Sequence record: NZ_CP084508.1
DNA: 64,000 nt
Direction: 5' to 3' (one strand)
Origin: a plasmid
This document shows positions 21,001 through 27,000 of this stretch, piece by piece (position 1 is the stretch's first letter; every line of letters begins with the position of its first letter). A program made the position numbers.

Positions 21001-24000
21001 GGGGTTATCGGTGTGCAGATCTCTCAGGGGCTGATCACTGGCGAACCGTTTGATATCCTGGCACATTCCATGATTTACAACATAATGGCCTGGTTCTCAC
21101 TCGCCAGCATTTTGTTCTATATCTTCAGTAATGTCTCCTGGGGAGCGATGCGCAAAGCAGAAATGCGTGCGCAGGCGCTTATCAGCTCAGTGGATGTTAT
21201 CGCCAGCACCCCGGAAGAGACTCATGAAGAGCCGGAAGATGATAAAGACATTATCGATCATCCAAACTGCCATACTTCACTGAACTTCTTTATTCCGATC
21301 CTCTCTACCATTCTAATGGTGCCGGTGGCACTGTATATCACCGGAGACGGCGAGTTCAGTAAAGGCAGTGGTTCCACCTCGGTTTACTGGGGCGTGATGT
21401 TCGGTACGGCGGTGTCATTTGTCTGGTTCCTTGCGCGCCGTGTGATGAGTGTGGATACCTTCTTTAAAGAGCTTTATATCGGCTATGCCAATATGATTAA
21501 AATCAGTTCGGTTATGATCCTCGCCTTCCTGATGGGCTCAGTGTCTTCTGACCTCAACACCGGTGCCTACATTGCCCAGGTGACATCCGGCGTTATCGCA
21601 CCAGGCTTCTCTGTCGGCTTTATCTTCCTGATCAGTGCCATTATGTCACTGGCAACAGGTACCTCCTGGGGCACATTCGCCATAATGATCCCAATTGGTG
21701 TGCAGCTGGGTCTGTCTGTCGGTATGCCGCCGGAATATATGATTGGTGCCGCTATCTCCGGGTCTATCTTTGGAGATATGACTTCCCCTATCTCCAGTGA
21801 TGCCATTGTAGCATCGATGGCGACAGACTGTGACCATATTGAGCATATCCGTACCCAGATGCCGTATGCGGTATTAACCGCGAGTCTTGTGCTGGCCGTC
21901 TATCTCTGGTTAGGATTCACCTACTGAATATGACTGCGAACTCAATAAAGATATGATATATCTTCTTCTATAATAAGCTTACGCTGGACATATTATCCAT
22001 GAATGGTAATGGTTTTGTCGATGGGGAATATCTCACAAAAGTAACGCTGAACCACAAAATCGAAATCATTTTCCTCGTTCTTTAGTGAAAAACGAAAGAA
22101 GGCGTGTTTGGCTTTGAAATACCCCGTCAGTAGGAGGCAATAAATTTGTACTTGTATTCCGGTAGCGTGTTTTGTCTGTGAACTAAGGCTGCCAGAACCG
22201 GGTTCACGACTGATGCATAATACACTTTTTCCGCTTCAGCCACTGGGGGGGGAGATATGACCGAGCCGCGCCATCAACCTGCGATTGTTGTACCAGTCCA
22301 CCCAGGGCCAGCTTTACTTCCTGCCGGGTTTCCCAACTTTTTCGATGTATCACCTTCGCCTTGTACAGGCTGTTGATGCTTTCCGGACCAACAGGAACAT
22401 TTGCGCAGAATCTTAAGGTTTGGAGAGCAACCCGGCAACCAGCTTAACGTGCTTTACTTTCTGTTTTCTGAGACAACCCGAGACAGACCACGGATCTGTT
22501 GACCCCGGTCGCGCTGTGAACACAGGCTTGCGCAGCCACATCACGCCAAGCCTCTGCTGCTGCGCAGAAATAGCCCTCTCGCTCGAGAATAACAGCGCGT
22601 CGTGCACGTTGCTGATGGGGAGATAAGGGGGTATACCGAGTATACACGATGAGGACCTCCTTGCGTCTTACTGTGTTTTTTCTGAGTTAGCCGGTCCCTC
22701 TCCCCAACAGTAAAGCAAGGGAGAGGAAAAATACCTCGGCGGCATATTATATTAATGTCGAACCTGCTCGAGCTCAGCGGCTGTTAAACCGGTCACCTGC
22801 ATAATCGTAGCGTGATCTATACCGATAGCCAGCATGTTGCGCGCCATTTCGCGCTGAGCCTCTTGGCGGCCTTCCTGACGGCCTTCCTGACGGCCTTTGT
22901 GAATGCCTTTCTGCATGCCTTTCTGTTCAAGTTGTTCAGCGATGGTCATCAGCGTGTCTCCATGTTGCGGCACTTGCGATGCCAGGGTGGTTAGCAGGGC
23001 CTCCGGGTTTTGTGTCTCCCCGACCTGGAACATGTAGTTCATCAGGGTGCGCACCTGCTTTTCGGTAGTGTAGCCTGCCAACAGTAATGTGACCACCTGG
23101 TTTAGCAACTCAGCCAGGTCACGCTGCCGGATATGCTTCTGCAGCAGCTCCAGCAAGGCGATGCGCTTGTGCTGCATGATCTCGTCATCCGGGATGACGG
23201 TGATATCCACCAACGGGAAATCACCGCAGTATAGCTGCCTGGCCAACGCCGGGTTGGCAAACTCCTGTAACCAGGACAGGCTGTAGGGATACGGTGACGT
23301 CTGCCCTTGGTAGAACAGGATGGGTATCACCAGAGGCAATGTGTCGTGGCCGGCATCGAGGTGTTGTTGCATGGCAGCAATCGCATAACGCATCAAGCGA
23401 AATGCCATGTGCTTGTCCGGTCGGGATTGATGCTCGATCAATGTATAGATAAAACCGTCCCCACCCTGGGTCTTCAGGGTGTACAACACATCACTGTAAT
23501 ACGGGCGCAAGCTCTCTTCGACAAACGAACCGGGAGCCAGTTGCAGCGTATCGAGGTCACAGATTTCCCGCAGTGCCGGCGGCAGATGAATAGACAGAAA
23601 ATCCCGGGCGGTCTCGGGGTGAGTGAGGAACGCCTTGAATACGCTGTCGTGAGGAGTCGCTGGATGTTTTTTCATTCAGGTATATTAACATTTTACCCTG
23701 CCTGCAGATAGCGGGCGGCCATATTATCAAACCCAAAAATCACAACGACCCGGACGAGCGAGCCATCCTTTGGAGGGGGTAGCTCAGACCGCTACGACCT
23801 CTATCCGACTTAGAGTACGATTTTCTCCATTTTCCAAGCGGCCCCCAATACTCGATCATTGTTCGAACGATACCCTTCTATCTCACCATGTTGTGAATCC
23901 TATTTCTACTGGCACTTGATACCGGCCATATCAGAAGAGGATGATGGGGCTACCGTTCCTCCTTGAATATCATGAATATAGTTTGCCTGACAGGCTGAAA

Positions 24001-27000
24001 GAAGAAAACCTAACGTTGCAAATAATATAAAAAAATAAATTTCTTTTTTCTCATAAATTTCCTTATTGATATAGCTACCAGCATTCATCCTTGATTACTG
24101 GTAGCTTGCTCATCAATTATTAATTGCTAATGGGATCACCAATTTCCATCCCGATAATCAAAAGCTATATAATAATTATCCAAATCAGGCTTTATTTGAT
24201 TTTTAAAAAATGGCTGTAGTAAAGCAACCCATTCTTTCTTCAAATCAAACTCACCATTATTAATATTATCCTTTAAAGGCATCCCCAGACTTTCAATGAC
24301 AGCCCCATCATCACCAAAATCTTTAGAATACTCCTCACCTTTAAAATCGCTTGTCTTCTTATCAAACCATGTCAAACGTAATTTAAGACCCATATTTACC
24401 TCTCAAAGATATTTTTTAATATTACGTTTAGGATCGGGAGACTTTAACTGCTTACCAGTCTTATGGTCAAAAGAGCCTAAATGCTCACCATCGCTCGAAC
24501 GATACCCTTCCATCTCACCATGCTGTGAATTCTATTTCTACTGGGACTTAATACCGGTAACAACAGAAGAGGATGATGGGGCTACTGTTCCTCCTTGAAT
24601 ATCATGAATATAGTTTGCCTGACAAGCTGCAAGAAGAAATCCCAACATTATAAAAGATATAAAAAAACAACTTTCTTTTTCCTCATAAATCTCCTTATTA
24701 GTATAGCTACCAGCATTCATCCTTGATTACTGGTAGTTTGTTTATCAATTATTAATTACTAATAAGATCACCAAACTCCATCTCGATATACAAAAGAGAT
24801 AAAATAGTCAAATTGGTTAATATCAATTACATTTTTAAAATGTGGCTGCAATATTGAAACCCATGACTGCTCAACATTAAACCATCCATTATTTATATTA
24901 TCTTCCAAAGGGAGACCTAAACTCTCAATGATAGAACCATCATCACCAAAATCCTTTGAATACTCTCCCCCTTTAAACTCTTCTGTTTTTTTATCAAACC
25001 AATGAATATGTAATTTTAGTCCCATAATTTCCTCTCAAAGATATTTTTTAATATTGCGTTTAGGATCAGGAGATTTTAACTGTTTCCCTGTCTTATGATC
25101 AAAGGAGCCTAAGTGTTCACCATCACTGGCACGATATCCTTCTAACTCACCATGCCGAGAGTCCCATTCATAGATTTTACGCCCTTTATCGCCATACCAC
25201 CTAGCTCGCTTCCCTCCTCCGTTTTGTTTTGGTGTTTTAGGTTTGCCCTCTTGCAATTCGCCTAATCCATGAATATCTTTTGTTTCTGGATCAGGGTAAT
25301 AATCATGACCATAATCCTTAAGCCCTTTTCGAGGTTTTTTCTTCTCCTCATTAACTTTATTTTCCGCAGCTTTTTTCTTCCCTTCCTTTTCTCTGCGATT
25401 CTCTAATGCATGAGATAACGCTTGCTCCGCTAATGTCAATTTATCCTTGGCAACAATTAACCTATTTCGGATTTTTCCGTACTCGATTAATTGCCCTTCA
25501 AGAGCTTGTCGAGATGCCTCTCGTGAATCTTTATCAGGGTTACCTTCATTAAAATCCCACCCAAATGCTTGCGCCCCTTGTGAGATCAGTTTATCACGAT
25601 CTTGTATCGTATTAATCTGTCCAACAGTACGAATTGTGCCACTATAATACGATGTTTTAAAAGGAATTGTTCCTTCTGAAACAATGGGGTATTTTGATGG
25701 ATCATTCCATGACTTTACATCAGGTTCATTTCTGACCCGCTCCAGTTCACGCTGTTGGCTAGTAACATTCTCCCTTGCCCGACGAAGCTCATCATTTGCA
25801 ATAGCCAGGTCATGCTTTGCGGCCTCAAGAGGATAAGATGCATTCCACATCTGTTGACGACGTCGATCTTCCGCCTCACGCAGTTTTACTTGTTCAGGTG
25901 TTAGCACATCTGATACGGAAACATAAATCGGTTTAACATTACTATTATCGGGAAAGCGGATCACTGCATCATGGGTGTTCCCTCCCGCACTAAACCCCAC
26001 AGCTTTTTCATCACCCCGTTCAGTAGGAATGCCTTTAGGCTGGCTAACGGATACAGGCGTATTATTCTTAATACTCAGATGGATATCCGGCTTACCAGGT
26101 ACAATACTGGCTATAAAAACACCAGGACGGGAGGTTGGCTTAGCTTCAACCACAGGGACACTCATTGGTACACCAGCTACCACTGCCAGCTTTTGCTTTT
26201 CATCCTGAATGATATCCGCCACCCGATTTTTTACCCGAACAGTAGCCGGCTGTAGAGGTAATGAGGGTGCCAGTGGTGCATCTAACACTTTATCTGCCGG
26301 AAGAGATGTCATAATTTGAGACATCATATTAGGATCATCTTTTGCGATTTCAGAGGGGATTAACACACCAAAAGTTACCCCCATTAATCGCCCAGCATAA
26401 GGCAGACCTGCAACTAAACCCTGCTCCAGCTTTGCCATTGCGTCCAATAAAGCTTTCTGAATTGGTGCAGTACGAAACAGAGAAAATCCCCACATACCAT
26501 CAATAAGAGAAATATTCATCGGCACGCCATAAGCGACATTGGCTTGAGCCTCAGGGAATAATGACAGATTAACGCCAGAGCTAGCGTGATCTTTATCACC
26601 ACCATTTCCACCCCGACTCCATCCGGCATCGGGACGTTCCCGTCCACCATAATGAGTAATAGAGCCTCGATGATCTGTTGTCGTTGAGGTACCATCACCA
26701 TTATCACGAGTATGCCCGCCTAAATTCTTCCCATCGTACCCACCAGTGGACCCTCTATCTCCACCACCAGGGTTTCGGCCTCCACCAAAAGCATTACCGT
26801 GAGCATTATTGCCCCCATTTCCACTCATAACGATTCCTCTTTGACATATAAAAACCAAAAATCAATACTGTACATAAACACATGTGTTTATGTACAGTAT
26901 TGATGCTAGCTCTACGATAGTTAGCTGTCAATGCAATTAATTTGATTGCAATCAAAATTTCAACCGATGTGAATGGGAGGGAGCGTTCAGTCAACCCCTT

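Follow-up and report, generated by a model that had tools for sequence, protein, structure and literature searches.

Extra immunity genes and fragments of toxin genes are well-known features of colicin plasmids, as is the type of operon in which they are found. ColE3 and ColE6 hold a non-cognate immunity gene, immE8, in addition to their own, ColE9-J carries a 3' remnant of colE5 followed by immE5 and a second lys gene, and orphan CT/immunity modules also occur in CDI and Rhs loci. Here we describe a locus with features of this kind on the minus strand of a 64,000-nucleotide stretch of plasmid DNA (sequence record NZ_CP084508.1). This whole stretch is referred to below as the window, and positions are those of the window unless another locus is named. 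The locus is very probably an SOS-type colicin E3/cloacin bacteriocin operon that encodes a 16S rRNA-cleaving ribonuclease (rRNase) and includes a spare immunity-lysis cassette, carried by a conjugative plasmid of Edwardsiella tarda; this species is pathogenic to fish, reptiles, and humans.

Colicin E3 (ColE3-CA38; PDB 1JCH, 2B5U, and 1E44) resembles the product of this locus in its translocation (T) domain, in its rRNase domain with the attached linker, and in its catalytic residues. In both systems, an 85-aa immunity protein (Imm) of the same family is encoded by a gene starting 9 nt past the toxin stop codon, an SOS-type promoter precedes the toxin gene, and a gene for a predicted lysis lipoprotein follows. 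The locus in the window departs from that of colicin E3 in several ways. In place of the BtuB-binding coiled-coil tip, its toxin has a colicin Ia-type globular domain, and it does not retain the TolB box. Its Imm proteins share 65-69% identity with ImmE3, with a difference at Cys47/48, and the genes reside in an Edwardsiella host on a large conjugative plasmid. The closest cytotoxic-immunity modules are those of cloacin DF13 and the Klebsiella cloacin plasmids (type A, locus L005; type B, locus L004), but the receptor-binding (R) domain of the cloacins is unrelated, their T domain is ~50% identical, and their plasmids, small replicons of the ColE1 type, carry one toxin-imm-lys set each. The R domain of colicin Ia (1CII; 2HDI in complex with Cir) is similar to that of the window toxin in its fold and in its place at the tip of a long helical hairpin (template modelling (TM) score, 0.73-0.77), and the two share the motifs N-x-PD-x-K...P-x-K-[FY]-P, [FY]-[AS]-G-T-I-[KR], and K-[IL]-R-x-R-L. 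Colicin Ia, however, is a TonB-dependent pore former, whereas the window toxin has its R domain inserted between a T domain of the E type and an rRNase.

In the E-colicin plasmids with extra immunity genes known from the literature, a 3' toxin fragment and a non-cognate imm gene likewise lie 3' of the intact toxin-immunity pair, having been acquired by recombination. In the present locus, the repeat covers the full 632-bp unit, lys included, and at least 2.1 copies follow one another in register; the array varies among sister Edwardsiella plasmids (three Imm types) and is always located beside an Rpn-family gene. The genes of the operon are already annotated publicly, and its architecture has well-known precedents in E-colicin plasmids. 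What is new is the Ia-type R domain, which is nearly unique in sequence, and the match of imm1 and imm2 to two co-varying cloacin immunity types.

Structure of the operon and domain organization of the toxin

All elements of an E3/cloacin-type rRNase operon with a duplicated imm-lys module, as proposed in an earlier note on this DNA, were found at the positions given there (Table 1). The GC content of the operon is 40%, compared with 53-54% in its flanks, which points to a foreign origin.

Judged from its sequence, the toxin is a three-part mosaic composed of an E-type T domain, an Ia-type R domain, and an E3 rRNase. Its N-terminus (residues 1-~95) is Gly-rich and disordered. Compared with the solved structures of colicin E3, toxin residues 15-366 correspond to E3 residues 6-349 and residues 460-597 to E3 residues 415-551, the latter bearing out the earlier recognition of the C-terminus as an E3 ribonuclease. 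The rRNase domain aligns over its full length to 1e44_B and 4v5k (residues 502-597 corresponding to residues 1-96 of 1e44_B), and the E3 catalytic residues, D510, H513, E517, and R545, are all conserved.

No counterpart of toxin residues ~367-459 was found by alignment to E3 or to the Klebsiella cloacins. The earlier note had described a segment without an E3 counterpart at residues 330-480; such a segment exists, but with the narrower limits given here. A phmmer search aligned the R segment to residues 229-395 of colicin Ia, including the Cir-binding domain (1cii, E=6e-8). An AlphaFold (AF2) model of residues 332-482, for which the input alignment consisted of six sequences at 25-30% identity, had a mean predicted local distance difference test (pLDDT) score of 90.9. 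When this model was compared with the PDB by Foldseek, the only matches at E<=0.001 were 1cii (probability 1.00, TMq 0.77) and 2hdi_B, the Ia R domain bound to Cir (TMt 0.73), and the comparison with the BtuB-binding R domain of E3 (1ujw_B) gave E=0.8 and TM scores of 0.28-0.35. The prediction that the receptor-binding domain differs from that of E3 is thus upheld, since its tip is unalignable to E3 and is Ia-like according to both phmmer and Foldseek. By these comparisons the R domain is of the colicin Ia type; it would bind a TonB-dependent receptor, for which our best guess is a Cir-like catecholate receptor.

Sequences close to this R domain are very rare. A full HMMER scan of 1.84 billion representative proteins yielded three hits, one of which is a fragment of the same gene and another a spurious repeat protein, and a word-indexed search yielded one match, a chimeric open reading frame (ORF) fragment from a copy disrupted by an insertion sequence (IS). 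A metagenomic ORF, P0121, joins read-through from the promoter region to a piece of the R domain and a fragment of a transposase. More distant R domains that resemble that of Ia, at 25-30% identity, are encoded in Salmonella, Escherichia albertii, and metagenomes, within E-type colicins, both rRNases and DNases, that are as yet uncharacterised. Databases therefore already contain precedents for the overall architecture.

Table 1. Features of the bacteriocin locus in the window. IR, inverted repeat; SD, Shine-Dalgarno sequence.
Feature	Position	Strand	Description and basis
Whole operon region	23809-26932	minus	Order: promoter/operator, toxin, imm1, lys1, remnant 1, imm2, lys2, remnant 2, Tn3-family IR
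Sigma-70-like promoter	26931..26903	minus	TTGACA-17 nt-TAGCAT; 10/12 consensus matches; conserved in sister plasmids L001 and L002
Palindrome	26861..26904	minus	Perfect, 44 bp, with two LexA-box-like sites; repeat and box search
LexA-box-like site 1	26897..26882	minus	CTGTACATAAACACAT; one mismatch to CTGT-N8-ACAG
LexA-box-like site 2	26883..26868	minus	ATGTGTTTATGTACAG; one mismatch to CTGT-N8-ACAG
Toxin gene	26828..25035	minus	597 aa; position includes stop codon; ATG start; SD GAGGA at 26839..26835
Translocation domain, E-colicin type	25842..26693	minus	Residues 46-329; Pfam Cloacin PF03515, E=9e-68; aligns to T domains of colicins E3, E9, and E7
Receptor-binding domain	25383..25835	minus	Residues 332-482; coiled-coil hairpin with colicin Ia-type globular tip (~367-459); phmmer, AF2, Foldseek
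16S rRNase domain, E3 type	25038..25328	minus	Residues 501-597; Pfam Cytotoxic PF09000 at residues 512-594, E=9e-32
imm1	25025..24768	minus	85 aa; presumed cognate immunity, cloacin type A-like; PF03513, E=7e-45
lys1 ORF	24720..24538	minus	Predicted lysis lipoprotein, lipobox LLAAC; PF02402
Toxin 3' remnant 1	24534..24403	minus	TAG for Trp codon, 42 sense codons (24531..24406), stop; carries promoter-like site and imm2 SD
imm2	24393..24136	minus	85 aa; probable orphan immunity, cloacin type B-like; PF03513, E=1e-38
lys2 ORF	24088..23906	minus	PF02402
Toxin 3' remnant 2	23902..23847	minus	~17 codons (23899..23847), 1-nt insertion, truncated; unit alignment
Tn3-family terminal IR	23846..23809	minus	GGGGGCCGCTTGGAAAATGGAGAAAATCGTACTCTAAG; 38 bp, Tn1721/Tn21-like; outer GGGG abuts remnant 2, interior runs towards Rpn gene

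Immunity genes

Both imm genes are full length and their products are 65% identical, as the earlier note had estimated; that of imm1 aligns to ImmE3 over its full length. The imm1 product is 89% identical to P0135, a 'cloacin immunity protein' (type A) that is widespread on small plasmids of Klebsiella and Citrobacter. The imm2 product shows 93% identity to P0148, the type-B Imm, which belongs to a second lineage of Klebsiella cloacins. Within the last 97 residues, the type-A and type-B cloacins of Klebsiella differ at 4 positions (F/H, D/V, E/R, and K/D). The window toxin has Y, D, E, and K at these positions and is thus type-A-like; over the same segment it matches type A at 84 residues and type B at 81. 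The two cloacins (type B, L004 1633-3318; type A, L005 1106-2791) are very common, and their Imm proteins are ~67-70% identical to each other. Chimeric Imm proteins (P0134 and P0147) also exist.

In the E3/E6 system, the Cys47/48 position of the immunity protein is a specificity determinant. The equivalent residue is W in imm1, E in imm2, and G in the second imm of the sister plasmids, and the neighbouring segment also differs between imm1 and imm2, so that the two genes of the window are not identical in specificity residues. Together with the type-A-like residues of the toxin, the type matches of the two Imm proteins fit a presumed role of imm1 as the cognate immunity gene for the resident rRNase, and imm2 is probably an orphan whose product would act against a type-B rRNase. 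The earlier description of imm2 as a divergent, probably orphan gene is in agreement with its similarity to the type-B Imm.

Promoter, lysis genes, and proposed mode of action

The SOS promoter with two overlapping LexA boxes reported in the earlier note was confirmed in the sequence. The two predicted boxes overlap by 2 nt and start 5 nt past the -10 element, and each deviates from the consensus by a single mismatch. The same dual-box layout is present upstream of the Klebsiella type-A cloacin toxin gene, whereas that of type B has one LexA box.

A hairpin is located between imm1 and lys1, and another between imm2 and lys2. The reading frames of the lys genes were compared in an alignment with those of L001, L002, and Klebsiella. 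The canonical start of lys1, consisting of an SD sequence and an ATG (24686..24684), does not share the frame of the lipobox and mature peptide, because seven bases rather than eight make up the T run at 24667..24661 (T7 and T8, respectively). In lys2, the canonical ATG (24054..24052) is likewise out of frame, with a T7 run at 24035..24029. The T run of E. tarda SC002 is T8. The earlier note mentions neither this shift in the two lys genes nor the Ia type of the R segment. The out-of-frame canonical starts of both genes would encode the usual MRKKK N-terminus. The 60-aa lys ORFs of Table 1 instead start at an upstream ATG within the imm-lys hairpin and would give an acidic, atypical signal peptide. 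In another annotation of the same strain (P0190), a non-ATG start in the same frame is used, and hence that sequence also contains T7; an in-frame T8 form of lys2 (P0192) is present in other samples. The T7 runs may represent a real double inactivation, expression by slippage only, or a recurrent assembly error in a homopolymer, each of which is possible.

From sequence and domain identity, synteny, and divergence patterns, we infer a mode of action that covers expression, killing, the receptor, and the immunity specificities. DNA damage would lift LexA off the dual operator, upon which the toxin gene, imm1, and, in principle, lys1 would be co-transcribed. The Ia-type hairpin tip of the toxin would bind a TonB-dependent outer-membrane receptor, for which a Cir-like catecholate receptor is the best candidate, and the E-type T domain would mediate Tol/porin-dependent import. 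The E3-type rRNase would then kill the target cell by cutting 16S rRNA in the decoding centre. Imm1 would neutralise the resident rRNase, and Imm2 may shield the host from a related type-B toxin.

Several details weigh against this scheme. The inner half-sites of both LexA boxes read CAT, not CAG, and the promoter scan as a whole detected 8 sites versus 9.3 expected from shuffled sequences, i.e. no enrichment. The canonical TolB box, DGSGW, is not conserved in the toxin, the aligned position reading DNGDGTSTT without a Trp, and the Tol route is therefore proposed from the homology of the T domain; a DAGWS motif at residues 67-71 is a candidate at most for this box. The R domain is 22-23% identical to that of colicin Ia, and its receptor could be another TonB-dependent transporter. 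Finally, with the canonical starts of both lys genes out of frame, toxin release may be impaired. Promoter-like hexamer pairs were also observed on the minus strand at 25102..25073 (in the toxin 3' end) and 24470..24441 (in remnant 1), which are homologous positions just 5' of imm1 and imm2, respectively. Because the promoter scan was not enriched over shuffles, these internal imm sites are suggestions only; if real, internal promoters would account for the toxin 3' fragment that travels with each imm gene.

The lysis genes raise the question of whether the locus is a non-functional relic, in which the toxin is perhaps made but its release is blocked by the frameshifted lys1 and lys2, leaving an immunity island only. 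The loss of one T in both lys genes, its recurrence in the second annotation of the strain, and the decay of related plasmids (e.g. the IS110-disrupted toxin gene in L003 and the toxin-less array in L006, both described below) are in line with this possibility, which we nevertheless consider unlikely. The 597-codon toxin ORF, the catalytic residues, the promoter/operator, and imm1 are all intact, and the lipobox frame is open from the upstream ATG. Homopolymer length is, moreover, error-prone in assemblies, and low-level slippage on the T run could still give some lysis protein.

Cassette array and its history

The unit comprising the toxin 3' end, imm, and lys is 632 bp long and recurs in exact register at 25166, 24534, and 23902. 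The toxin remnants reported after each lys gene are both present, but they are longer than the earlier note had stated. The first comprises 42 codons, the previous figure of ~37 reflecting a 36-aa ORF that begins at a Met, and the second spans ~17 codons, rather than ~12, and contains a 1-nt insertion. Between remnant 1 and the 3' end of the intact toxin gene, 20 of 126 nt are different, but only 3 of the 42 codons encode another amino acid (L>M, A>S, and R>Q). The synonymous divergence (dS) between the two is 1.25, with a ratio of non-synonymous to synonymous divergence (dN/dS) of 0.04. Because the differences are nearly all synonymous, remnant 1 must have diverged within a working toxin gene. 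It carries the Edwardsiella-type C-terminal signature, SFDHKTGKQLKSPDP, not that of Klebsiella.

Divergence is uneven along the unit: dS is 1.40 between imm1 and imm2 but 0.23 between lys1 and lys2. Old divergence in the remnant and imm as opposed to young divergence in lys indicates that the cassette is itself a mosaic, produced by recombination or evened out through gene conversion. Both lys1 and lys2 are followed by an identical junction of the lys 3' flank with the remnant, and the unit must therefore have been reiterated after this junction had formed, most simply by unequal exchange. We therefore favour, on the basis of these patterns, an origin of the array by recombination between distinct operons followed by unequal exchange of cassettes over a single duplication. 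The repeated recombination between bacteriocin operons envisaged in the earlier note is supported by both the alignment of the remnants to the intact gene and the uneven dS. The second cassette would join the 42 3'-terminal codons of another rRNase toxin gene, formerly functional, to imm2 and lys2.

An in-place tandem duplication that has since drifted, with imm2 a redundant or decaying copy lacking a specificity of its own, would explain why the unit occurs three times in exact register and why the lys-remnant junction is shared. In its simple form, however, this explanation is ruled out by the uneven dS across the 632 bp (1.25-1.40 for the remnant and imm versus 0.23 for lys), and in general it is quite improbable, given that the differences between remnant 1 and the toxin 3' end lie almost solely at synonymous sites, that imm2 is intact over its 85 residues and so close to the immunity protein of a separate lineage of Klebsiella toxins, and that sister plasmids hold another imm type in the same slot.

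The variation among the sister plasmids is as follows. In pEtSC002-2 and pEtSC002-4, the gene order is toxin-immA-lys-remnant-immC, in which immC represents a third Imm type (64-68% identical) and a second lys is lacking. pEtSC002-2 also contains a toxin-less array (L006 4790-5975; 52.4-53.6 kb of the record), which consists of a remnant of ~70 codons of a Klebsiella-like rRNase, immB, lys, a remnant, a frameshifted and degraded immC, and then the Rpn gene. This arrangement suggests that immunity-only islands exist in Edwardsiella plasmids. In E. tarda pEh-Pc1 (L003 4237-6691), an IS110 element interrupts the toxin gene, and the greater part of the imm/lys array has been lost.

The earlier note had described remnant 2 as cut off by a Tn3-family IR, and such an IR was indeed found directly next to it. 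In a scan with known IRs, it matched that of Tn1721 at 27 of 38 positions and that of Tn21 at 26 of 38. Like other Tn3 ends, it starts with GGGG and has an inner ...ACGCTAAG-like motif, and it shares GGGG and AAATCGTAC-CTAAG with Tn1721. Homology between the window and the toxin-less array L006 ends at 23847, the first base beyond the GGGG terminus of the IR, and in L006 the counterpart of remnant 2 runs on into a third imm gene. This breakpoint and the continuation in L006 confirm that the array was once longer and was truncated by the end of a Tn3-family element, the insertion of which would have cut the third cassette short just past its start. No inverted partner of this IR was found within the window, and no cognate transposase gene was found nearby. 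A first IR candidate on the plus strand (23776-23816; GGGGGTAGCTC...) was dropped, as the scan with known IRs places the repeat on the minus strand at the position listed in Table 1.

A second Tn3-family IR is present on the minus strand at 22443-22480; it matches Tn21 at 33 of 38 positions and is in direct orientation to the first. Between these two direct IRs, neither of which has an adjacent transposase gene, lies a gene for an Rpn/YhgA-family 'recombination-promoting nuclease' (22752-23675, minus strand; PF04754, E=9e-88). An Rpn gene adjoins the imm/lys array, in either orientation, in all Edwardsiella loci examined (L001 2917-3852, L002 1561-2484, L003 3041-3976, and L006 5975-6886).

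Host, carrier plasmid, and previous reports

The exact toxin, imm1, imm2, 36-aa remnant ORF, and lys ORFs are identified by NCBI as those of a 145,764-bp plasmid of E. tarda ATCC 15947, the names given to the operon proteins being 'Colicin-E3', 'Microcin-E3 immunity protein', 'colicin release lysis protein', and 'hypothetical protein'. The exact toxin sequence is WP_109691576.1 of E. tarda. The replication and transfer region near the operon is 92-93% identical to F-type plasmids of E. tarda and Edwardsiella anguillarum. Among the plasmid collection, the nearest operons are those of E. tarda SC002 (92-93% identity in DNA and 97% in protein). The hedged suggestion of the earlier note that the toxin might be a Klebsiella 'klebicin' fails at this point, since the exact toxin and both Imm proteins are those of the ATCC 15947 plasmid and the backbone is 93% identical to Edwardsiella F-type plasmids. 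That the toxin is a Klebsiella klebicin or cloacin DF13 proper entering through IutA, or an E colicin entering through BtuB, is scarcely credible despite the closeness of its rRNase and Imm to cloacin type A and the NCBI name 'Colicin-E3' for one copy, because its R region cannot be aligned to the R domain of either cloacin or E3, its best full-length relative outside Edwardsiella is 57% identical, and all exact or near-exact copies bearing an organism name are from Edwardsiella.

In the literature, no experimental work on this bacteriocin or on other colicin-like bacteriocins of E. tarda was found. The genome paper on SC002 mentions the bacteriocin in passing only, a survey of nuclease bacteriocins does not mention Edwardsiella, and a review of salmocins does not cover R-domain types. 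Elsewhere in the window, a Cus/Sil-type copper/silver efflux cluster is located at 9534-18160, which encodes a CusS-like sensor kinase, an outer-membrane factor, a CusB-like adaptor with a heavy-metal-binding domain, and an AcrB-family pump, and a fimbrial usher is encoded at 3580-6090.

Implications

A broader reading joins these observations, although we regard it as doubtful when taken as a whole. The toxin could represent the first of a type of bacteriocin that is specific to Edwardsiella and enters cells by a new route. Given how few sequence relatives its Ia-fold R domain has, this domain may recognise a TonB-dependent receptor other than Cir, BtuB, or IutA, and it is combined with an E-type T domain that lacks the canonical TolB box. 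The Rpn-linked cassettes could form an actively shuffling immunity island directed against the cloacins of Klebsiella-like competitors, and the T7 runs in lys could act as slippage-dependent attenuators of lysis.

Apart from this broader reading, the operon described here is a concrete candidate for an Edwardsiella bacteriocin, a natural chimera of E-type T, colicin-Ia-type R, and rRNase domains, and it illustrates the swapping of R domains between Tol- and Ton-type colicins. With its array of cassettes and the two cloacin types of Klebsiella, which differ at only four rRNase positions, the specificity between rRNases and their immunity proteins could be mapped in a small, naturally occurring system, and the locus could reveal an outer-membrane receptor that is exploitable for killing Edwardsiella.

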